48,083 bases of DNA from an uncultured Candidatus Saccharibacteria bacterium. GTDB taxonomy: Bacteria > Patescibacteriota > Minisyncoccia > Phycocordibacterales > DATDWN01. The stretch spans positions 1-48,083 of the forward strand of contig CAZNUU010000006.1 of assembly GCA_964576615.1 (NCBI GenBank), in the 5' to 3' direction. The position numbers were made by a program, and so were the translations under genes. The notes beneath the pieces were generated by a model. That model was not told where the DNA came from and searched no databases. It saw only the letters and a list, made by a program, of their open reading frames with translations. Positions 1 through 47,808 of this stretch are shown here, piece after piece (position 1 is the first letter of the stretch; the number at the start of each line of letters is the position of its first letter).

Positions 1-3000
1 ATGTTGCTTGAGCTGAAATGTTTAGACCTCGAACTGTGGTAGTTCCAAAACCAGAACCTGAGATCGTAAGCGCTGAAATAGAAGTTGTTGCTGTACCAGC
101 TATTGTTGTAGTCGACAGGAAGAGATCCCCTCCTGCATTTCGAAGCACCCACTGAGCTACACCAGAACTAGCTGATAAAGAAAGCTGAGGAGCGGTCGAG
201 GAAGCGAGAGTTAATAGATATTGCGGAGTACTTGTGCCAAAACCAGTCCAGTTGTTAAGTGAGTAGGAGTTGAGTATTGATGAGGTTGAAATGAAAGACG
301 AAACCGTGAAGTAATTTGATGTTGTCGCAACAAGCGTTGTGCCATTGGCATCAGAAGTGATGATGGAATTAGCAGCAAAGCTTGTTGCATTTGTTCCACC
401 CTTCGCTACGCTCAGAGTTCCAGTGATTGTTGAGAGAGTTGTAGTACTTTGCCAGGTTGGTACTCCGTTTACTAGGGCAAGGACTTGGCCGTCGGTGCCG
501 GCGGAAGTTGTTGCAATTTTTCCAGCACCATTTCCAAGAAGGACAGTGTTGGATTGGAGATTGGCCCAGCCTGTACCACCTGAACCAACAGCAAGAGCAG
601 AAGCTAAAGTTAAGACTCCTGCATTATCAAAAGTTGATGTTGCAGTTCCACCAAAGTAAGCTCTGTATGCAGAGAGCATGGTGGTAGAAGCATTGCCTCT
701 GAAAAGAGAATTACCTAAAACTTCAAAAATATTTCCGGTTGTGGATGTGGCATTTGTACCAAATAATATAACATTGGCGGTATTGGTAGGATAAATAGCT
801 AAACTATCTGAAGTAGTCGACCATGCAGTTGAACCCCCTCCGCCACCAGTAGTTAAATCAGTTTGCCAAGACGGCACACCACTTTGTAATTTCAAAACCA
901 AACCATCAACTGAGGCAGGAAGTTTCGCAAGTACATTATTTGCAGATGCATACAAAATATCTCCTTTGGTGTATGTTGTCTGATTTGTTCCACCAGAACT
1001 TTCTGGGAGGGCCAGTCCAAGAGAGATAATGCCATTTGAATTTATTGTAAGTGCAGTTATGGTTGAAGTTGAGTAAGTATCAGATGAAGTTGCAATGTAT
1101 AAACTTCCTCCTTGGGACGAGATGGTCCAATGTTTTAGATTTGCTCCGGCTGAAAAATCAGAAAGTGCTAACTGGGGTTTAAATGTTGCTGAAGCCGTGG
1201 TGGAAGAAATTTGTAGGAAAGTAAATGGTGTAGTTGTACCAATTCCTAAGTTACCTGAGAAGTAGGAACTACTGGTTGTTGTTGAAATTAATGAACCTAC
1301 TGTTAATTGAGAACCTGTGGCGACTAGTGCTGTACCCGCAGAGTTTGAAACAACAATTGAGTTTCCTGCAAAAGATGTTGCATTTGTTCCACCTTTAGAT
1401 ACTGCGAGTGTTCCAGAAATAGTTGATAGGGTTGTAGTTGCTTGCCAAGTTGGTACTCCGTTAACTAGTGCTAGGACTTGGCCGTCGGTACCGGCAGATG
1501 TTGTGGAGATTGCACCTGTACCATTTCCAAGAAGAACTGTGTTGGATTGAATTGTTGACCAACCTGTACCACCTCCCGCAACCGTTAGCAATCCAGATAT
1601 TGTTGGGGTGAATGTTAGAGCACTAGCTGTTGGAACAATTGTTTGACCAAATGTTAATCCGTTGAATGATGTAGTTGTAGTTGAGAATGTGATAGCACTA
1701 CCGGTTGTAGTTGCGTAGCCGGAACCTAGAGCAGTTAGTGTTCCTGCACCAGAACCTATACAAGTTCCTCCAACCGCAAAACAACCACCAGTTAGATTAA
1801 ACCCAACGTTGGAGGTCGAAGTTGCTTGGCCTGAAATGTTCAACCCTCTAACTGTCGTTGTACCAAAACCTGAAAGTGCAATTTCGAAAGCTGAGATAGA
1901 TGTGGTAGATGTTCCAGCAACAGTTGTTGTTGAGATGTAAAAATTTGTACCATCATTTCTAAATGTAACTTGACCGAAACCTGCGCCAGCAGAGAGGGAG
2001 AGCTGAGGCCGAATATTAGCGGAAGATGAGGCAATCGTCAAAGCATAAAATGGAGTTGTCGTACCGATGCCTACGTAAGCATTACCGGTTGTATCTGTCG
2101 CTCTGATTGTAATGTCTTCATAAAAAGTCCCTGATCTGTCATGGCCAAGCCTCCAATCACTGTTATTTGTGGCCAGGACCGAGTTAGAATTTCCGTCTGT
2201 CCCGAGATACCATGCGGCGACATTATTATTCTCACGTCCGATTCCGACAACATAATTTTGGTTACTACCGCTTGTAGTGAAGTCATCTCTAAAAAGAGCA
2301 AGTGGAGTAGCTACAGCTCCGCTATTACCCTCAACTGCAAATTTATTTGAAAGTGTAGCTAACCCAACCCCTACACTTCCGTTTTTATCCACCAAGAAAC
2401 TAGTACCGCTTGATGATCCTACTGCAAAACCAGTATCGCCTGCACTTTGATTTACGGAAAGATTTGCCCATGGAGTTGTCGTACCAACCCCAAGTTTACC
2501 AAGGAAATAAGATGTGTTTGTCGACGTGGAAATAAGTGAACCAACTGTTAGCTGTGACCCGGTTGCAATAAGCGTTGTGCCATTGGCATCTGAAGTGATG
2601 ATGGAATTTGCGGCAAAAGAAGTTGCATTTGTTCCACCCTTCGCTACGCTCAGGGTACCAGTGATTGTGGAGAGAGTTGTAGTACTTTGCCAAGTTGGAA
2701 CTCCATTTACTAGTGCTAGGACTTGGCCATCTGTGCCGGCGGAGGTAGTGGATAATCTTTGTGTTCCGTTTCCAAGCAAAACTGCATTGGCTTGAATGTT
2801 AGACCAACCGGTACCACCTACATTTGCAGCAAGTGTCGAAGAAGCACTGACCAGTCCATTAACAGCCTGAAGTGGACCGTTAAGGGATCCGCCCAAAGTA
2901 AGGGTGCCAGCAAATTCATTTGTAGATGAGGCGCTGGCAAAAGACGAATACACTGTTGATGAAGAATACGCAAATGTGATTCTTCCCGTTTGATCAATTG

Positions 3001-6000
3001 TAGTTGTGCCTGTTCCTCCGAAGTATCCGTAGTTTGCAGAGATTCCAGTTGTAGAAGCATTTCCATTTAGAAGAACGAGAGACGTTGTTGCTGACTGGCC
3101 TGCGGCTGGATGAGTAAATGGATCAGTGATAAAAGCTCGATCATTGTTAAACCATGAAAGTTGAATTGAGGATGATGCAATTGTATTAACTTGACCTGTT
3201 GAACCTGTGTAAGCAAAGCCTTGAGATAGTGATGAGAGATAAAGTGATGAGGAGAATGTAGATGATGCTGTAGAGAAGAGACCGTTGAAGCCGATGACTG
3301 TTGAGGTTGAGTTGTAACCTGTGTTAACAGTAAATGGAAATCCGAAGTTAGAGTAATCAGATCCAGCTGTTGCCGGCAAAATATTGCCATTGGAATCCGT
3401 CTTAAGAAGTGATCCAGTAATTCCTGTAATAGCTAGCCTGGATGTTGTCGCATTTGTTGCAAGAAGTGTTGGGAAAGTGGATGTTGCTGTTGTAGTCGCA
3501 GTAAAATATGAACTTACAATCTGTCCGACCACAGAGAGTGGAGCGTATGGTGATGTAGTTCCGATTCCCAAATTACCCAGGAAGTAGGAGTTGTTTGTTG
3601 TGGTAGAAATTAATGACCCAACCGTAAGCTGGGAACCGGTGGCAATGAGTTGAGTACCCGCTGAATTTGAAACAACAATCGAATTCCCTGCAAAGGAAGT
3701 TGCATTCGTTCCACCCTTAGCTACGCTCAGGGTACCAGTGATAGTGGAAAGGGTTGTAGTACTTTGCCAGGTTGGTACTCCGTTAACTAGTGCTAAGACT
3801 TGGCCGTCGGTACCGGCAGATGTTGTGGAGATTGCACCTATACCATTTCCAAGAAGAACTGTGTTGGATTGAAGGGATGCCCAACCTGTGCCACCATAAA
3901 CAACTCCGATTGTCGTAGTAGCAGATACAACTCCGTTGTTTGCTTGGAGCGGACCGTTGAGAGATCCTACCGTTAGACCACCATTAAACGTATTTGAATT
4001 TGTAAATGTATTAGATGAGTATGTTTTTGGAATTGTGGAACTTCCGTTTACAAAAGACTGAACTCTGGCATCTGTGTAGTAAAGATTTGAACCTTCAGCA
4101 ACATTTGTTGTAAGTAAACCCAAAGATGAAGTTGCGATTTGCTGATACCCTGTGCCGGCGTAATTTCCCAAAAGAACTCCTGCAGCTGTTGGGGAAGAAA
4201 TATTTGTTCCACCTCTAGCGACAGAAAGTACTCCCGTCCAGCCAGGTGCAAATGTGTGAACATCACCTGACGATGTGATTGTGAGTTGAATGTTTGCATC
4301 CGATGTTGTTGCAAATGTTTGAGATGACCCGTTTTGGAAAGAAGAGTACTGTGCACCTAAAGCAGTGATACCTCCGCCAGCTCCTGCATCTGCTCCACAA
4401 CCAAATTTCCCAGTTGCAGAATTCCAGATCAATTTATCCGAAGAACTAGAACAAGATGTTAGACCTGCACCAAAAATATATCCTGAATTCAGATCAAGAC
4501 CCCGAACAATACTTAGTCCGCCGTTAAATGTAGATGTTGCTGTTGTTGTAGTGGCTGTGATGTACGAAGATACAATTTGACCAGAGACAGAAAGTGGAGC
4601 ATACGGCGATGTCGTTCCGATGCCCAATCTAGAGTTTGTACTATCCCAAATAAAATTATCCGAACCAGCTAAAGTTCCACCATTGTTAAACTGTACATCT
4701 CCATTTGAACCTCCAGGTGTACCGCTGCCACCGCCGGTACCTAAACATGTTCCGTTAACAGAAACACAACCACTGGTTATGTTAATTCCCCCCGCAAAAG
4801 TTGAGGTAGAGTTGTTTGTGACATTTAGAGTAGTAGCGGTAATAGCGCTGTTACTAACTGAACCGCCACTTATTGATGGATTATTTATAACCGTATTGTT
4901 TAACTGATCGATTCTTTGGCTTCCTGCAATCTCTTGGTAAATATTGGTGACAGAGCCCCCACTTCCAGTCGAAAGTGAGTAGAATTTCGACATTATGTTG
5001 TTGTTGAATTCTTGAAGTCTTGCCTCTAGTTCTGTTTTTGTAACTGCATAATTAGCCGGTCTCTCAATTATTCTTTCAATTACATTCGTTGTATTTATTA
5101 TTGTTGGCTGAGAAGAAATTGTGTTTTGAGCCACAACTTTTGTCGGTGTGGAAGTTGGAGATTTGGGAATATTTTTTGTTTGATTCTCAGTGGTAGCAAC
5201 ATAAGTCGTGTTAATAATATTTGGAGTTGAATTAAATAGTCCAGCAATCGGAAGATAGATTGCTCTTTCAAACCAATTATTTACAGTTCGATAAACTACG
5301 AGTCCAGAATGATCGATTGCATTCAAATCATCACCCGCACCAGTTGCAACTGCTGCAGTTAAGTTTCTTGATTTATTTTGAAAATAATTATTTGCATAAG
5401 AGGCACCACCGAGTGAATCCGATACAAAAGCTAAAAATCTAGTACTACCGTTTGAAAGGGAAGTGCTCAAATTAATTCTGCTCCCATCTACAAATTTTTT
5501 GTCTTGAAGCGATAATTTATCTAGAGTCCCTAAAATATATGCGGGTGGATTTTTTAATGCAGCGACTCCCTGGTTAACAAAAGCAAAACTGACTTCGTTT
5601 AACCTGTCTCCAAAACTTATGTAACCATTTTTTAGCCTATCTGAATAAAAACCAATGAGACCATCTGCTGCACTGTAAAGGTCATGTGGAGAATTGCTTA
5701 TACTCTCTGAGACATTTGAAAGACTGAGGTTCTTAGGACTAAAATCACTCGAAACTTTAGCAAATGAACTTTTAACTTCTGAGAGACCTTGGGGGAACGA
5801 CGTTAAGCTGTCTTTTATGGAAATAGCTCCTATAGCCAAGATAAGACCTATGGTTAGGGGTAAAAATTTACTAGAAAGACTATAGTCAAAACCAAACAGT
5901 GACTCGTGAATTACTTGCGATGCCCTAGGTAGGATCTTCTTTTCAGGTAATTCAACTTTTACTGACTGTGTAATTTGCTTACCACTTTCCTGTACTGGAG

Positions 6001-41629: not shown

Positions 41630-42373
41630 ATGTTTGAAAAATATCTCAAAGATATTGGTCTAAGTGATAAAGAAGCAGCCGTCTATATTACCCTCCTTTC
41701 TTTCGATAAGGCACTTATTGCTGAAATTTCTACAAAAGCCAAGGTTAAACGTCCAACCACATACGTTATTTTGGAATCCCTTCAGAAAAAGGGTCTAGTT
41801 AGTGAAACAAATATCGGCAAAAAAACTTTTTATATGGCTGAACCCCCTGAGAAACTAGACATGTTTGTGGAAAGACAGATCCATTTGTTGGAAGAAAATA
41901 AAAAAAGCTTAGATGTAGTCATTCCCCAGCTTAAAGGAATGCAAAGAGAACAGGGGGAAAAACCTATGGTCCAATTCTATGATGGCAAAGAAGGTGTTTT
42001 AAGCTCTAATTATGATACGTTTGCCAAAAAATTTGATAGTGAGCCGGTTTATATTGTCTACTCTAGAGATTTAGTTAAAGACGTCTTTACTGAAAAAGAA
42101 TCTAAAGTTATGAGGGATAAACGAATATCTATGGGGATTAAATCTAAAGCCCTGTATAACTCCCATGAAGGTGAAAGGCCATCTGATGAAACTGGTTATA
42201 GATTAAAAATCGATGAAGCCAAGTATCCAATCAACAGTGATGTAACAATATATGGGGATCAAGTCAAAATTGCAGTTTTTGGTAAAAGAATTTCCGCAAT
42301 CTCAATTAAAAGTAAAGAATTCGCTGATACCCTCAAAAGTTTAATAAATTTTATCTTCGATAATAAAAAATAG
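41630..42373 (+). CDS. TrmB-family transcriptional regulator
   Basis: GLSDKEAAVYITLL...RPTTY.IL.SL..KGLV winged HTH plus C-terminal effector-like domain. Confidence 0.9.
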   Translation: MFEKYLKDIGLSDKEAAVYITLLSFDKALIAEISTKAKVKRPTTYVILESLQKKGLVSETNIGKKTFYMAEPPEKLDMFVERQIHLLEENKKSLDVVIPQLKGMQREQGEKPMVQFYDGKEGVLSSNYDTFAKKFDSEPVYIVYSRDLVKDVFTEKESKVMRDKRISMGIKSKALYNSHEGERPSDETGYRLKIDEAKYPINSDVTIYGDQVKIAVFGKRISAISIKSKEFADTLKSLINFIFDNKK

Positions 42374-42384
42374 AATAAATAATT

Positions 42385-42416
42385 TATGCCGTGGCGACTA
42401 TTGTCGCCACGGCATA
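42385..42416. terminator. Strong hairpin, probable terminator for convergent transcripts
   Basis: 14 bp perfect stem TATGCCGTGGCGAC-TATT-GTCGCCACGGCATA. Confidence 0.75.
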
Positions 42417-42672
42417 CGCCCACCGATCACTCTCGGATGGGTCAGAGCAGAGAAAACACTTCTTCTTGCGTCGGCGCACCACTACTGGTTCGTCGAAGTC
42501 CGAGATGATCCCTCTTTGCATCGCTTCCGGGCGGACGCAGCCCCTTTTTCAGTCGTGCATGACATTTTCTCCTCGACTCCTATCGACTGGACTGACCGCC
42601 AAGCCTTTACCCGGGGCACCAATTTCACCCCGGGCCAGCCCGCTACGCATCAGTCGTTCATAGAACCTCCTA
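42417..42672 (-). other. GC-rich short transcription unit (structured sRNA or micro-ORFs)
   Basis: Lies between a minus-strand promoter and the 42385 hairpin; GGAGG precedes ATG AAC GAC TGA; nested stems GACTGA/TCAGTC and CCCGGGG/CCCCGGG; no convincing long ORF. Confidence 0.45.
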
Positions 42673-42678
42673 CATATA

Positions 42679-42706
42679 AGTATATACCCTATCTTTTATT
42701 TGTCAA
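42679..42706 (-). promoter_or_regulatory. Sigma70-type promoter
   Basis: Minus strand TTGACA-16 nt-TATACT. Confidence 0.7.
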
Positions 42707-42848
42707 ATCCAAGTGACACAAGCATCATGGTTGTTTTAAAGAAGTCCGATTTTAATTTAAAAAGTCAGACTAAATTAATTTAATTAATCAAAATATGGCT
42801 TTAAATAAGGCCATATTTTTGTATATAATGAGAAAATGTCAAAACAAC

Positions 42849-42877
42849 TTGACAAAATAACGAAACGGGTATATACT
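42849..42877 (+). promoter_or_regulatory. Near-consensus sigma70 promoter of the large ncRNA
   Basis: TTGACA-17 nt-TATACT with AT-rich upstream sequence; predicted start about 42884. Confidence 0.85.
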
Positions 42878-42883
42878 GTCCGT

Positions 42884-44135
42884 GTAAGTTGATATGAGGT
42901 CGCTGATTCAACTGCGAGGCAACCGTCCAGATTATTATCACGGACCCGCAAATCAGTAAATTTCAGAGAACTTAAGGTTTTTTACAAGATGGAAGGGGCT
43001 AGCTAATAACTATCCTCTCCACTTAAGAAGATTTAAGAAGTCTTTTTAAGTGGGGGTGGGTAGGATGCCAAATATAACGCAGATGGGGATCTCCTAGCGT
43101 TGAGCGACGTTAGGAGTTCTGCGGGCCAGGGGCGTCGAGTACGCCAAGGCCAACCCAAAATGGGACCGGTTGGACGGAGTCCACCGTGGGCTGACGCCTC
43201 GGTTCGCTCCCGAGTGCTAGGTCCCAGTCCAATCCCATCCCCACGTTCTTTACAACATGGTGAATCCGCGAGGGCCACCATTGCTCCTAATCAGAGCCGG
43301 GATGTTATCGCAGTCCTGGGAACAGAAAATGCATACGCGGAGAGGCTAAATCCGAGAGAACAAAGAACTAGGCTAGCCACCTTAACGGCCTGTTGTGAAG
43401 TGTGTGCTTCACCTGATGAGATCAAAAGATCGAAACAGAAGTTTTTTGAAAAAAATTCCAACAATGCTCACAGAGCGTATTCGGAACTCAAATCAAACTT
43501 GAGAGTCGAATATGCTCTGGAGAGCATGACAGTCCAGCAATGGACGATTTGTCTCGGCCAGCACGTCCGAGGCAGGGTATGCCGAAAGGTAAATCCTAAT
43601 CTCCACGGAAGTGGTTATGAGTAGGGTCTACCAAACCCGAGGTCTCTTAGCCAATTTCGCTTTTCACGCTTGGCAGTGTGGAAGGAGTCAGAAGACAAGC
43701 AGATCCGAGGGAGTTGCATCCCGAAGGGTTTCTGCCGAAAGGCAGGAGCGTGCCAACGCCTGTAAGTTGGAAAGTCAGTGGCTAAGCTTAGGGGTCGCAA
43801 GCCTCTTTGTGAATGCCTCTCCCATTACTGACAAAGTGCTGCAGCAAACTTTCAAAGTTTGCCAAGGTAAAGATGGGGGAAAGTTGTGAGCGTAGGGCCA
43901 GGCCCCGTCAGGGGAAGTGAGGATTTGACCCCTCACATGCGAAAAGCCCCGGCCAGGGTGGATCGCAATAAGCTCACAATGGAGCCGCAAGGCAAATCGG
44001 GCAACCGGATACCTCATAAGGGTGCAGGTTGTGGTCAAAAGAGTGAACCGGTGGCAAACCGGTGGTAAAAGCGAGGGGTCACCCTTGCAAACTCACTCAC
44101 GGGGCGAACGTTGACCTTATGTCGCTCCACTTAGT
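42884..44135 (+). ncRNA. Large (~1.25 kb) ornate structured ncRNA with GOLLD-like 3' domain
   Basis: No credible ORF or RBS; dense helices (43646-43653/43779-43786, 43818-43825/43873-43880, 43884-43891/43972-43979, 44041-44046/44093-44098), many GNRA loops, 5'/3' end complementarity. The GOLLD assignment rests on remembered motif order and is unverified. Confidence 0.75.
43390..43438 (+). ncRNA. Type III hammerhead ribozyme, predicted cleavage after GUU (43394)
   Basis: CTGT-T, stem I GTGAAG/CTTCAC (loop TGTGTG), core CTGATGA (43413-43419), stem II GATC-AAAA-GATC, GAAA, and CAG closing stem III. Confidence 0.9.
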
Positions 44136-44174
44136 TCTTTGCTCTTCTTGAGCTACTCCCAACCAAGGTTGGGT

Positions 44175-44225
44175 TTCCGTAAAAATTTTTAACCAATCGA
44201 AGCTTGCTTGAAAATTTTTACGGGA
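44175..44225 (+). other. Long AU-rich hairpin between the ncRNA and the next gene
   Basis: TTCCGTAAAAATTTTTAA pairs with TTGAAAATTTTTACGGGA (18 bp, two GU pairs); no following U-tract. Confidence 0.6.
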
Positions 44226-44258
44226 ATAGTTCCCGGCAGTTCTTTCCAAGGAGACGTT

Positions 44259-44624
44259 ATGCGTATGAGTGTGATCGCGATTCTGTTCTTCCTTACCTTC
44301 GTCGTAACTCCGGTTCGATCGTCGGCGCAGGAACTCGCTTCGCCCGCCCCTGCCGCTTGCCACGACCCGGCGCCCATCGCCGGCCCCCGCGGCCCTGCCG
44401 GCCCCCGCGGCCCGATCGGGCTCGTGGGTCCCACCGGTCCCGCCGGTGAAGTGCCGGCCTGGTATCTGTGGGTCGTGCTCGGTGCGGCCGGTATCGCCAT
44501 TCTCGCACTCGGTCTTGCAATCGGTGCGTTGTCGAACCGGCCCGCTCCCGCGGCTCCGGCACCGGTGGTAGTCGTGAACTACCCGGGTGCCGCCCAGGCG
44601 CCTGTCGGTCCGCACGGACCGTAA
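44259..44624 (+). CDS. Small collagen-like membrane protein (signal peptide, 8 Gly-X-Y triplets, TM, Pro/Ala tail)
   Basis: RBS AAGGAG before ATG 44259; GPRGPAGPRGPIGLVGPTGPAGEV; TM WYLWVVLGAAGIAILALGLAIGAL; strongly GC-rich codons; 121 aa. Confidence 0.85.
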   Translation: MRMSVIAILFFLTFVVTPVRSSAQELASPAPAACHDPAPIAGPRGPAGPRGPIGLVGPTGPAGEVPAWYLWVVLGAAGIAILALGLAIGALSNRPAPAAPAPVVVVNYPGAAQAPVGPHGP

Positions 44625-44629
44625 GATCT

Positions 44630-45110
44630 TCCGGGAGTACCCGATCCTTGCGCGGGGAAACCGAGGCCTTCTGTGTTGGGCTTTAATACGAACACTCCTT
44701 AAACTTTGGTGGTCAAAAGTTCCGAATCTTTTGATTCGGTTTCCGTCAGAGATTTTTTAAAAAAGAAATTTCTGATGGGGAACGATGGATACACCAGGTC
44801 AAAGCAGGAGAAAGGCGTCGCGTAAGGGGTTCAAGGACCTGAGCTCGCAATGAGCCAGCGAGAAGCCCCGATACGCTGATTACCCGAGCCTCATTCCGGT
44901 AGTAATCGTTTCCCTTCAATTCGCGGTCCAGGCATGTGTGTGCAGATGCCAGAGGACTAGTAGAGTCGCCTTATAAATTCCTAAGGCGGATGATCCCGAG
45001 AGAGATCGAGGGATAACTGGATCGCTACGCGAGTGGCTAAGTCGAATTCCACAAGGAGGTGGCCCCGACTCGCAATGCCAAAGATCCAGACTGCACACGT
45101 TTTTCAGATG
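44630..45110 (+). ncRNA. Second structured non-coding region with predicted pseudoknot (family unknown)
   Basis: Helices 44722-44739, 44777-44786/44905-44914, 45017-45023/45083-45089; hairpin loop 44938-44945 is complementary to 45091-45098. Confidence 0.55.
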
Positions 45111-45118
45111 TTCTTCCA

Positions 45119-45140
45119 AAGCACCGCTCTTGCGGTGCTT
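45119..45140 (+). terminator. Hairpin ending the RNA island, overlapping the next -35
   Basis: AAGCACCGC-TCTT-GCGGTGCTT. Confidence 0.6.
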
Positions 45141-45167
45141 GACTTTATATATAATTCATGGTAGAGT
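45139..45167 (+). promoter_or_regulatory. Sigma70-type promoter
   Basis: TTGACT-17 nt-TAGAGT with extended TG. Confidence 0.6.
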
Positions 45168-45185
45168 TCGAGCAGGAGGTGCCAT

Positions 45186-45392
45186 ATGGCACAGTTTGTG
45201 ATGCTGCCGGGCATGGTTATCGTGCGGTCGTTCTCCGAGGGGGACAAAATCGTGCGGAACGTGCCGGCTCGTCGGGAAACGGAAGTCGATGCCCTGGCCC
45301 ACGCTCTCTGGCTGGATCGCCGGGGGTTTGCAGCCGAGGCCGACGCCTACCTCGACGACTACATCCGGCGCAGTGCCGGGTGCCGACACTGA
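45186..45392 (+). CDS. Small GC-rich hypothetical protein (68 aa)
   Basis: AGGAGG RBS, own promoter and terminator, GC-biased codons. Confidence 0.8.
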   Translation: MAQFVMLPGMVIVRSFSEGDKIVRNVPARRETEVDALAHALWLDRRGFAAEADAYLDDYIRRSAGCRH

Positions 45393-45408
45393 CTCGTTTC
45401 CTCAGGTT

Positions 45409-45445
45409 GACCGTCTCCCCTAAAAAAGGAGACGGTCTTTTGTTT
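45409..45445 (+). terminator. Intrinsic terminator
   Basis: GACCGTCTCC-N9-GGAGACGGTC followed by TTTTGTTT. Confidence 0.85.
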
Positions 45446-45511
45446 ATGTGAAAATATCGTGCGAGCTTTGCTTTGTATAATATTTATTGTGCGACATGCT
45501 AAAATACTTGC

Positions 45512-46482: not shown

Positions 46483-47091
46483 ATGCTAAGAACTTTGTCA
46501 GAGCAGGAGAGGCAAGCAGTCGAGTATTACGACTATGAAATCAGAGAGCGAATTCTGTGGGATACCCAGATATGGCTCGATGATTTCATGCATTCCATCT
46601 TCTGGCGGCTCGCCGAGTCAGGCGGGACCGTAATCGACGTGGGCTGCAACATGGGCCGAGCAATTCCCCTCTTTGAACAGATGGGGGTGAAGGGGTACTT
46701 CGGCATCGATCCATCCGTGGAGTCGGTGAAGTACTGCCGGGAGAATTTTCCCAAGTACTCGTTTGAAGAGGACGAAATCCGAACCATTGGCGAGAACTAT
46801 CCCAACAGGTTCGGCGGTTTCTTTCTCGCTTGCGTCTTGATGCATCTTCCTCGAAAGGATATGGCAGTTGCTATCAAGTCGCTTCGGGTCTCTCTCAAGG
46901 CAGGTTCTCCCGGTATGTTCTCAACTCCCGCTGGGAAAACAGAAACAGATGAGGTTGAGAACAAGTCTGGCATGAAGCTCACACTTCTGACCCCGGAGGA
47001 GGTGTACGGATTCTTTGCACAGAATGGATTTGAGGTTAGTTCTCTGGAAGTCGTCGCGGGGATGCTTCTTGGCCATGTAGTTGCTGTTTAG
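46483..47091 (+). CDS. Class I SAM-dependent methyltransferase
   Basis: VIDVGCNMG, GIDPS and VLMHL motifs. Confidence 0.9.
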   Translation: MLRTLSEQERQAVEYYDYEIRERILWDTQIWLDDFMHSIFWRLAESGGTVIDVGCNMGRAIPLFEQMGVKGYFGIDPSVESVKYCRENFPKYSFEEDEIRTIGENYPNRFGGFFLACVLMHLPRKDMAVAIKSLRVSLKAGSPGMFSTPAGKTETDEVENKSGMKLTLLTPEEVYGFFAQNGFEVSSLEVVAGMLLGHVVAV

Positions 47092-47108
47092 CTTCTTTCG
47101 ACCGAGTG

Positions 47109-47140
47109 ATCCGCCCCAAAGTTGGGGCGGATTTCTTTTT
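47109..47140 (+). terminator. Intrinsic terminator
   Basis: ATCCGCCCC-AAAGTT-GGGGCGGAT followed by a T-rich tract. Confidence 0.85.
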
Positions 47141-47191
47141 ATTTCAATTATTGTATGCTTGATGTAAGAAGAATTTTACAATAAAAATTAG

Positions 47192-47219
47192 TTGACATTT
47201 TATAATTATGTGATATTCT
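47192..47219 (+). promoter_or_regulatory. Sigma70-type promoter
   Basis: TTGACA-16 nt-TATTCT. Confidence 0.6.
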
Positions 47220-47262
47220 GCGAATAGAAAGGATTCCGCGTCATGCGGAATTTGGTGATTTT

Positions 47263-47748
47263 ATGGGACTGATGTACTTGTTTCTCGCATGGGCGGCGTT
47301 GTTCATCGTTGTGGGAGTCTGGAGGAGAATTATGTCTCTCACAGTCTGTGGCGTGGCCCTCCTTCTCATCATCGGTGGTGGCAAGGCCTGGAAGGCGATG
47401 GCCGCCTCGAACGCAACATTCGCCGCGGCTCACGCCGGGCACGAGCAGATTCACGCCGAGTTCGCCAAGGTTCTCGGGACAGTCGAGCCCGGCGACCTGC
47501 TCATCTGGGATGACCAGGTCTACGTGTATCAGTACTCCGATTTCCGTTCGGGAGACGAAAGCGTTCTCCGCTACAGGCCACCGAATGCGTTGACAGCTGG
47601 TGGCGAGGCAGATGGCATGAAGCTCAAGTTCTTGGCCGAGCGTCATGTCAGGGTGGTGAAGGCGGGTACGCCCGAATACAACCAAGAACTCGGCACCTAC
47701 TTCACTCGTATCACCGGCCGCAACCGAGCTGCATCGTCGGCAAGGTAG
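47263..47748 (+). CDS. GC-rich hypothetical membrane protein
   Basis: Two N-terminal hydrophobic segments, GC-biased codons, flanking promoter and terminator; alternative in-frame start ATG 47332 after GGAGGAG. Confidence 0.8.
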   Translation: MGLMYLFLAWAALFIVVGVWRRIMSLTVCGVALLLIIGGGKAWKAMAASNATFAAAHAGHEQIHAEFAKVLGTVEPGDLLIWDDQVYVYQYSDFRSGDESVLRYRPPNALTAGGEADGMKLKFLAERHVRVVKAGTPEYNQELGTYFTRITGRNRAASSAR

Positions 47749-47756
47749 TTCCCTAC

Positions 47757-47792
47757 GTGGCTCGCATCCAACAGATGCGGGCCACTTCGTTT
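47757..47792 (+). terminator. Intrinsic terminator
   Basis: GTGGCTCGCATC-CAACA-GATGCGGGCCAC then TTCGTTT. Confidence 0.8.
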
Positions 47793-47808
47793 ATGCTAAT
47801 ATCTTTAT

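Follow-up and report, generated by a model that had tools for sequence, protein, structure and literature searches.

A hammerhead-punctuated cassette island carrying a candidate large structured RNA in a Paceibacterota genome

The locus and its features

The window analyzed here is a stretch of 48,083 nt (contig CAZNUU010000006.1, forward strand) from a 677-kb genome that is 93.6% complete, designated G000, with other G numbers denoting its relatives. Our subject is a GC-rich island at 42849-45140 that contains one hammerhead ribozyme and, directly behind it, a candidate large structured RNA, here called the core RNA. A first-pass annotation, made from the nucleotide sequence without database searches, had described this place as a giant GOLLD-like RNA with a built-in self-cleaving ribozyme, accompanied by a collagen-like membrane protein and a second ornate RNA. 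Comparison with relatives upheld the ribozyme and the large RNA; searches with covariance models gave no support to GOLLD.

The G+C content was 50–59% over 43001-45500, about 35–41% in the preceding 2 kb, and 38% and 35% in the two following 500-nt windows; in all genomes looked at, the island (45–54%) stood out from its flanks (30–40%). By its composition and predicted boundaries, 42849-45140 is one GC-rich unit, with a promoter at its start and a terminator-like hairpin at its end. The features discussed below are as follows.

41630-42373, + strand: gene for a TrmB-family regulator (Pfam PF01978, E 5.9e-15)
42849-42877, + strand: sigma-70-type promoter (TTGACA, 17 nt, TATACT), matching 11 of 12 consensus positions
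42884-43384, + strand: structured leader, the first cassette (minimum free energy (MFE) z -5.58, 0 of 100 shuffles as good)
43390-43438, + strand: type III hammerhead with exact core and stems I–III, predicted to cut between U43394 and G43395
43464-43527, + strand: long hairpin of the cassette head, 25 pairs, after an A/U-rich linker (helices 2–3 of the alignment, with compensatory changes)
43528-44144, + strand: core of the large structured RNA, with covariation in six variants, no Rfam family, and a central domain at 43763-43983
43950-43955, + strand: 6-nt hairpin loop with a self-complementary center, GGCC, or GAUC in one variant
44158-44223, + strand: cassette boundary without a hammerhead, a small hairpin followed by a long A/U-rich hairpin (44177-44223)
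44259-44624, + strand: gene for a collagen-like membrane protein of 121 aa, with GGAG before the ATG
44722-44782, + strand: two conserved boundary hairpins (block D; 4 sequences)
45017-45089, + strand: conserved ~75-nt 3' element (block E), 22 pairs, 7 of them compensatory, 6 sequences
45119-45140, + strand: terminator-like hairpin closing the unit, a 9-pair stem and then a T-rich tail

Both ends of the unit had been noted before and hold up: the closing hairpin has the build of a terminator, and the promoter, described as near-consensus, has both hexamers invariant in 7 homologous loci while the bases around them drift. The leader is a composite. Its first ~190 nt are common to G017, and 43296-43384 are common to G007, G021, G044 and a variant known from metagenomes; a homologue search with 43070-43296 found none.

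A type III hammerhead ribozyme

Read from 5' to 3', the element at 43390-43438 consists of a 4-pair stem III, the GUU site, a 6-pair stem I with a 6-nt loop, CUGAUGA (43413-43419), a 4-pair stem II with an AAAA loop, GAAA (43432-43435) and the return strand of stem III. BLAST searches against relatives showed that a piece of ~60 nt holding the hammerhead recurs, often in several copies within one locus. In an alignment of 12 copies, 97.6% of the cells were paired in register, versus 35–45% when pairing was recounted with the partner strand shifted (slid controls, also used below). Compensatory changes occurred in 10 of the 14 pairs, the core columns were invariant, and 0 of 500 shuffles reached the observed values. 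Another 45 copies, taken from 14 fetched arrays, gave 98.9% paired cells and 12 of 14 compensatory pairs. Stems I and II are closed by loops in the alignment, stem III is open, and all three covary. The complete hammerhead that had been recognized by eye is thus borne out by its exact core, its three helices and covariation over both sets of copies; the comparison argues that the fold is genuine, and self-cleavage is predicted.

Hammerheads cleave after an NUH triplet that adjoins the A15.1–U16.1 pair. The triplets of the 12 copies fit this rule, with GUC in nine, GUU in two (the window's copy has GUU) and UUC in one. Three covariance models were built for genome searches: R1 for the hammerhead, from the 12 aligned copies, R2 for the central domain of the core, and R3 for the element at 45017-45089. 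R1 recovered a single copy in G000, with 78.6 bits.

A large structured RNA behind the ribozyme

The core RNA measures ~650 nt (43528-44144), or ~700 nt for the tested stretch 43444-44165. We count seven variants, from G000, G021, G019, G044, G007, one metagenome variant and G111. Six distinct sequences, 67–88% identical in pairwise comparison, were aligned over 785 columns, and RNAalifold predicted 218 pairs in 31 helices for them, 72 of these pairs with compensatory change. In an independent count, 95.5% of the core cells were paired versus 33–48% in six slid controls, the 72 compensatory pairs compared with 7–16 in slid controls, and 0 of 500 shuffles reached the observed value of any of five measures. 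The compensatory changes are of RNA type and include G-U pairs, which are strand-specific. The homologues thus covary, and the window's own sequence over 43444-44165 also folds better than its shuffles (MFE z -6.62, 0 of 20 as good), which, together with the z value of the leader, agrees with the almost continuous structure reported by the first-pass annotation.

Over the same stretch, every frame of all 6 homologues contains at least 4 stops. Indels among homologues of the core are 1, 2, 4 or 9 nt long, and variable sites lack codon periodicity (0.36/0.31/0.35 for the longest antisense open reading frame (ORF)). These properties argue that the RNA of 43444-44165 is non-coding; the stops, the frame-shifting indels and the missing periodicity likewise support the earlier view that some 1.25 kb here contain no credible gene, as holds for 42884-44250.

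Of 40 other genomes of the genus, four (G021, G019, G044 and G007) have full-length relatives of 43296-44150. An exact-pattern scan of 185,579 species genomes returned three of those four, in records labeled Candidatus Paceibacterota or Patescibacteria, and a metagenome scan returned five core loci, of which three repeat G019 and G044 and two represent one new variant, duplicates being judged by identical BLAST and nhmmer statistics. With R2 (43763-43983, 58 pairs), a distant copy was detected in another family of the order (G111, 84.6 bits, E 1e-25). Inclusion of G111 gave seven variants of the central domain, with 97.2% of cells paired and 25 of 58 pairs compensatory, and nhmmer showed that G111 has kept the 5' and 3' core motifs and lacks one branch. 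R2 had no match in 150 other genomes of a class sample, no core was found among the relatives of G111 besides G111 itself, and nhmmer found none in all fetched hammerhead arrays. The core RNA has so far been found only in one order of Paceibacterota.

Four hairpins with GNRA loops had been singled out in this region, and three of them are supported by compensatory changes. The hairpin at 43532-43545 (GCAA) has such changes in G007 and G111, the one at 43732-43745 lies within a helix with 6 of 7 compensatory pairs, and the one at 43984-43993 occurs only in G000 and G021, with one compensatory pair. The fourth, 43998-44007, does not vary, and a long-range helix competes with it, which leaves its case undecided. 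The loop at 43950-43955 shows a single double change, from which self-complementarity emerges intact, and this could point to RNA–RNA kissing or self-association, as a lead only.

Hammerhead cassettes in related genomes

Hammerheads lie on both sides of the core, 780–806 nt apart, in four of the seven variants (G019, G044, G007 and the metagenome variant). The others are one-sided, with an upstream hammerhead only in G000 and G021 and a downstream one only in G111. In the window, the place of the downstream hammerhead in the four two-sided variants aligns with 44158-44223, and a self inverted match spans 44174-44226. The ribozyme does not go with this RNA alone: three hammerheads separate small ORFs in G017. 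Two or more same-strand hammerheads flanking genes are seen in relatives, G000 itself having one.

In a sample of 151 genomes from the order, G000 among them, R1 had matches in 36, and these were frequently clustered. The position of hammerheads at cassette boundaries in these relatives fits the idea of processing by a ribozyme put forward in the first-pass annotation. In 14 arrays, a same-strand ORF of at least 80 aa was present in 21 of 31 inter-hammerhead segments, and in many segments the ORF begins some 25–50 nt past the ribozyme. A hairpin of at least 15 pairs (typically 20–28) follows 39 of 61 hammerheads, versus 32 of 183 random windows of the same loci, and starts within about 10–30 nt of the hammerhead; the window's example is 43464-43527. 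In 7 loci of the genus the island is preceded by a TrmB homologue, as is the core in G111, and 11 of the 24 other genomes with fetched arrays, one of them G111, have a homologue near the hammerheads.

The arrays comprise three to six same-strand type III hammerheads spaced 250–1150 nt apart, with a single small orphan ORF in most of the cassettes; examples are L061 (G029:C2:137000-149000), L062 (G142:C54) and L063 (G168:C12). Some inter-hammerhead segments are poor in ORFs (L061 4120-4901 and 5691-6439; L064, oriented, 823-1325 and 2330-2653; L074, oriented, 2704-3867). Their ORFs are 28–73 aa long and their folding z values about -10 to -12 (12 shuffles). Values of -8 or lower occurred in 9 of 25 inter-hammerhead segments tested, the long head hairpins supplying part of this signal. 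Such ORF-poor segments may hold further ribozyme-bounded structured RNAs.

Contigs from RNA-labeled libraries

Contigs of relatives were present in four libraries labeled as metatranscriptomic, from three studies. One contig of 368 nt is identical over 43770-43848 and has four differences over 43531-43578, and others cover 43708-43898 with 22–25 differences. The contigs cover 43531-43578, 43708-43898 and low-complexity collagen codons, and none extends over the cut sites; matches at 44362-44414 are unrelated GC-rich sequence. By their sequences, these contigs attest to further core variants in soil and rhizosphere samples. As a sign of transcription they are weak at most, given that two of the four libraries were flagged as probable DNA and that the ends of an RNA cannot be read from contigs.

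Discussion

We consider it probable that the island is a series of ribozyme-processed cassettes, one of which supplies a large ornate RNA of a new kind. What sequence analysis shows directly is the fold of the ribozyme and that of the large RNA, that the latter is non-coding, that the modules are arranged as cassettes and that the promoter is conserved. The conserved promoter would drive a long transcript, which would be split into modules. A typical module would be headed by a type III hammerhead, an A/U-rich linker and a hairpin of 20–28 bp; in relatives, most modules contain a single small ORF, and one module contains the multi-domain RNA of ~650 nt. In G000, the hammerhead would cut after U43394 and leave a 5'-hydroxyl RNA made up of the ribozyme body, the head hairpin and the ornate core, and in four of the seven variants the hammerhead of the next cassette would cut on the 3' side, giving a unit of 780–806 nt. 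In G000 and G021 the second ribozyme is missing and the long hairpin remains, so that the 3' end would be made otherwise or the RNA would stay joined to the collagen-like mRNA. By analogy with other ornate bacterial RNAs, a transcript made and cleaved in this way would release a stable structural or catalytic RNA acting in trans.

Several observations weigh against this reading. The window's hammerhead, with its GUU site, has no match to Rfam Hammerhead_3 (RF00008) at E ≤ 10, its only relevant weak match being to Hammerhead_1 (15.3 bits, E 6.9), and no copy reaches the gathering score: the 8 matches to RF00008 in relatives, at 24.9–44.9 bits, all fall below the 48.5-bit cut-off. The hammerhead of G000 stands alone, which leaves the 3' end of the RNA undefined, and we found no clue that ties the core RNA to any partner or activity. 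The comparative evidence stems from 7 distinct core sequences, and because 6 of them share one genus, the compensatory counts include inherited changes. The upper part of helix 4 and helix 5, both long-range, are contradicted by G111 and G007, which favor the local hairpin 43532-43545 over the pairing predicted by RNAalifold; the detail of the fold is therefore not final, and the predicted fold is solid in outline, not in every helix. Finally, the only RNA-labeled material is assembled contigs of relatives, which span no more than parts of the core, and DNA can be present in libraries of this kind.

We regard as doubtful a bolder version of the same idea, in which flanking hammerheads would free the 780–806-nt unit, perhaps circularized, and the ~650-nt RNA of the candidate phyla radiation (CPR) would self-assemble via its GGCC/GAUC loop, as one cargo of a TrmB-linked hammerhead–hairpin cassette system in which other ORF-poor cassettes (z about -9 to -12) would possibly be further large RNAs.

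Circularization also lies at the center of an unlikely alternative, in which two hammerheads would excise a unit-length RNA that is then closed into a circle, a DNA-encoded bacterial counterpart of retrozyme or viroid-like RNAs, with the core as cargo or as a structure for replication or packaging. In retrozymes and viroid-like circular RNAs, a unit of several hundred nt lies between type III hammerheads of direct orientation whose stem III is short. In favor of this alternative, hammerheads in direct orientation bound the 780–806-nt unit in four of seven variants, stem III is short (4 pairs), and in G019 and G044, where the stem III sequences are identical, stem III could form again between the 3' tail and the 5' ribozyme body after both cuts. 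However, the chimeric stem III of G007 would hold a mismatch, G000 and G021 have the upstream hammerhead only and G111 the downstream one only, and the same heads precede ordinary ORF cassettes. Circularization mediated by RtcB was considered and rejected, as this ligase was found in 0 of 5 carrier genomes. Compared with retrozymes and viroid-like RNAs, the units described here reside in a bacterial chromosome, have a branched ornate fold instead of a rod-like one, include one-sided copies and come with no ligase that we could find. In addition, circular products of clustered hammerheads were sought by Perreault et al. (PMC3088659), and none were seen.

We think it improbable that the large RNA is a cis-acting leader, i.e., a giant 5' untranslated region or sensor, of the small exported-protein gene behind it. 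A small exported-type protein, collagen-like or lipoprotein-like and with signal-peptide-like or lipobox-like features, follows the RNA in five of seven variants, a loose tendency, and no ribozyme separates RNA and ORF in G000. Nevertheless, a hammerhead does separate the two in G007, G044 and the metagenome variant, the genes that follow belong to unrelated families, and the RNA is far larger than known leaders.

Improbable, in our judgment, is the proposal that the hammerhead–hairpin units work mainly at the level of DNA, as integron-like recombination sites or relics of mobile elements, with the core as passenger DNA. Some features invite it. The cassettes are mosaic; the TrmB proteins of G000 and G021, which fall into two allele groups, are only 50.8% identical, versus 65–91% for flanking proteins and 88% for the core RNA; one cassette protein family recurs in four genomes; long inverted repeats stand at the boundaries; and a tyrosine recombinase gene follows the island in G000. 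That recombinase, however, is Xer-type (XerD, 250.7 bits), scored 148.3 bits with the integron integrase model TIGR02249 against a cut-off of 265, and is absent beside the other loci, for which reason an integron-like or phage-integrase context was rejected. Moreover, every hammerhead carries the full catalytic core on the transcribed strand, and the compensatory changes of the core, with strand-specific G-U pairs among them, are those expected of RNA.

Viral contigs are rich in hammerheads of this subtype, with a 4-pair stem II and an RAAA loop, an exact pattern occurring in at least 120 stretches. In 80 fetched viral loci (L086-L165), R1 found 158 copies, often arrayed, with up to 6 per locus. 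R2 found no core RNA in these 80 loci, and no TrmB-like or cassette proteins were found in them. A viral, plasmid or phage origin of the core was rejected, with no match in phages or plasmids, none in viral contigs by two patterns and none by R2 in the 80 loci. PHROGs gave no match for eight cassette proteins of other arrays or for a 68-aa ORF of the window. The setting in a CPR chromosome, proposed earlier and here assigned to Paceibacterota, is supported.

That the core belongs to GOLLD or is closely related to it, or to ROOL, OLE or HEARO, is far-fetched in the light of our searches, even though the size class is similar, GNRA loops are many, the function is unknown in both cases and the island is of atypical composition. 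Rfam 15 (4227 models) gave no match anywhere in the window at gathering score; with permissive filters over 42700-45300, ten weak matches appeared at E ≤ 10, none to a large-RNA family. Those to iscRS (24.4 bits), Histone3 and several miRNA families lie below threshold and were read as chance. In five homologous loci, the large-RNA families had no match at E ≤ 1, and OLE, HEARO, RNase P and group I and II introns had no Rfam match in the window or the homologous loci. Searches of the whole 677-kb G000 genome at E ≤ 10 returned nothing for GOLLD (RF02032) and nothing for ROOL (RF03087), the latter result being weak because control genomes were silent as well. The likeness to GOLLD, and the order of motifs given as that of its 3' domain, therefore found no confirmation. 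GOLLD often neighbors tRNAs or prophage genes; here ARAGORN found 0 tRNAs in the 48-kb window, and the absence of an adjacent tRNA or phage structural gene, stated in the first-pass annotation, stands.

A divergent RNase P RNA was also considered, prompted by a GGAAAGUC-like stretch in the core and the missing RF00010 match in G000, and this identity was ruled out by G007, G019, G044 and G017, which hold a normal RNase P RNA plus island elements. RF00010 matched in 31 of 41 genomes of the genus and not in G000 or G021, where an assembly gap or a divergent RNA could be responsible.

The idea that the 1.25 kb are protein-coding or a misassembled foreign fragment, for which one could cite drawable ORFs of 60–174 aa and a G+C content unlike the rest of the genome, can practically be dismissed, since no frame is conserved, indels shift the frame, codon periodicity is missing, the same flanking genes surround the island in several independent assemblies, and 0.90–0.97 of its sampled words are present in two DNA runs.

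The reading we favor, of cassettes processed by ribozymes, has a close known parallel in prophages, where individual genes are flanked by clustered hammerheads that cleave the polycistronic RNA both in vitro and in vivo (Perreault et al., 2011; PMC3088659). There, as here, several hammerheads on one strand divide up a polycistronic unit, and what they flank, a single gene or a short block, varies in identity (PMC3088659). In contrast, the cassettes of this study occupy a site in CPR chromosomes behind a TrmB-like gene, where no phage gene was detected, a hairpin of 20–28 bp usually follows the ribozyme, and one cassette consists of a ~650-nt RNA instead of a gene. A second parallel is offered by GOLLD and ROOL, described as large ornate RNAs (Weinberg et al., 2017; PMC5737381). 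They share with the core RNA a length of hundreds of nt, many junctions and tetraloops, a function not known, a patchy distribution and an accessory-looking genomic setting (PMC5737381). The core RNA differs from them in having no covariance-model similarity and no nearby tRNA, in being bounded by predicted self-cleaving ribozymes, and in its occurrence, so far, in one order of Paceibacterota. A third parallel is synthetic: engineered ribozyme-flanked guide RNAs are likewise functional RNAs freed from a longer transcript by flanking ribozymes, and the island would be a natural use of the same logic with a large RNA.

Full-text literature searches, which reach few subscription journals, returned no report of hammerheads or such structured RNAs in Patescibacteria, Parcubacteria or the candidate phyla radiation, and no natural large RNA flanked by ribozymes. 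Clustered hammerheads and large ornate RNAs are both known; what is new is an RNA family that forms a hammerhead-bounded cassette in a TrmB-linked CPR island. Bacterial RNAs of such size and intricate fold are known in very small number, and every one of them has raised fresh questions of structure or biochemistry. From its comparative signature, the ~650-nt RNA is a candidate new class of large functional RNA, one that offers ends testable at the bench and strong comparative support from a handful of genomes, in a poorly understood CPR host. Its setting suggests that hammerheads are routine punctuation of accessory cassettes in one CPR order, in about a quarter of the sampled genomes. As some cassettes appear to carry structured RNA and not genes, they are a place to look for further RNAs, and the core RNA itself would be a natural example of the release of a functional RNA by flanking ribozymes.

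Neighboring genes and the 3' part of the island

In the 121-aa ORF behind the core RNA, 8 G-X-Y triplets follow one another without a break; the N-terminus is hydrophobic, and there is another hydrophobic span. The ORF is retained in G021, where a triplet has been added in frame; this argues that the gene is coding, and by these signs it looks real. The ORF, triplets and hydrophobic spans of the collagen-like transmembrane protein described earlier are thus present. Its match to Pfam Collagen (PF01391) reached only 16.9 bits, under the cut-off of 27.2; PHROGs gave only low-complexity tail-fiber matches. The gene follows the RNA in G000 and G021. In G007, G044 and the metagenome variant an unrelated lipoprotein-like ORF takes its place, and in G019 and G111 other small ORFs do. 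Given that the gene accompanies the RNA in just two of seven variants, a fixed RNA–protein pair is not supported, and neither is a conserved three-part system that includes the protein.

The second ornate RNA of ~480 nt that had been proposed for 44625-45140 came apart into boundary hairpins and a ~75-nt 3' element confined to the genus. The alignment of block D (221 columns, 4 sequences) has 36 predicted pairs, 11 of them compensatory. A decayed hammerhead was considered there (CUGAUGG after GUC) and rejected, as R1 had no match at E ≤ 1. R3 found block E in 8 of the 63 genomes of the family, each time as a single copy; all eight, G000 among them, belong to the genus, and two of the matches are weak (25–26.5 bits). 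Those copies whose position was checked, i.e., the six alignment members and that of G044, sit at the 3' end of the island.

Several smaller observations concern the surroundings and the cassette proteins. The distribution of TrmB alleles does not track the similarity of neighboring genes. Among cassette proteins, a family of ~100 aa with a C-x2-C-x-T-C motif (L013:1781-2071, L015:4028-4363, L062:3064-3354 and L063:4608-4916) has members in two genomes of the genus and in two from other families, with pairwise E values of 4e-6 to 3e-20 and no Pfam or PHROGs match. Just past the terminator, the 68-aa ORF at 45186-45392 has its own promoter-like site and a GGAGG and belongs to no known family; its homologue in G044 precedes the RNA cassette. 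On the other side of the island, 42385-42706 form a divergent minus-strand unit, with a promoter at 42706-42679 (TTGACA, 16 nt, TATACT; 11 of 12 positions), a 14-pair terminator at 42416-42385 and, between the two, ~285 nt of GC-rich sequence with no minus-strand ORF above 48 aa. Part of this unit is conserved in G004, and it may represent a further small RNA. Beyond the Xer-type recombinase gene, a second GC-rich block (46483-47800, 46–52%) holds, besides a 161-aa ORF without a family, a class I methyltransferase gene (46483-47091).

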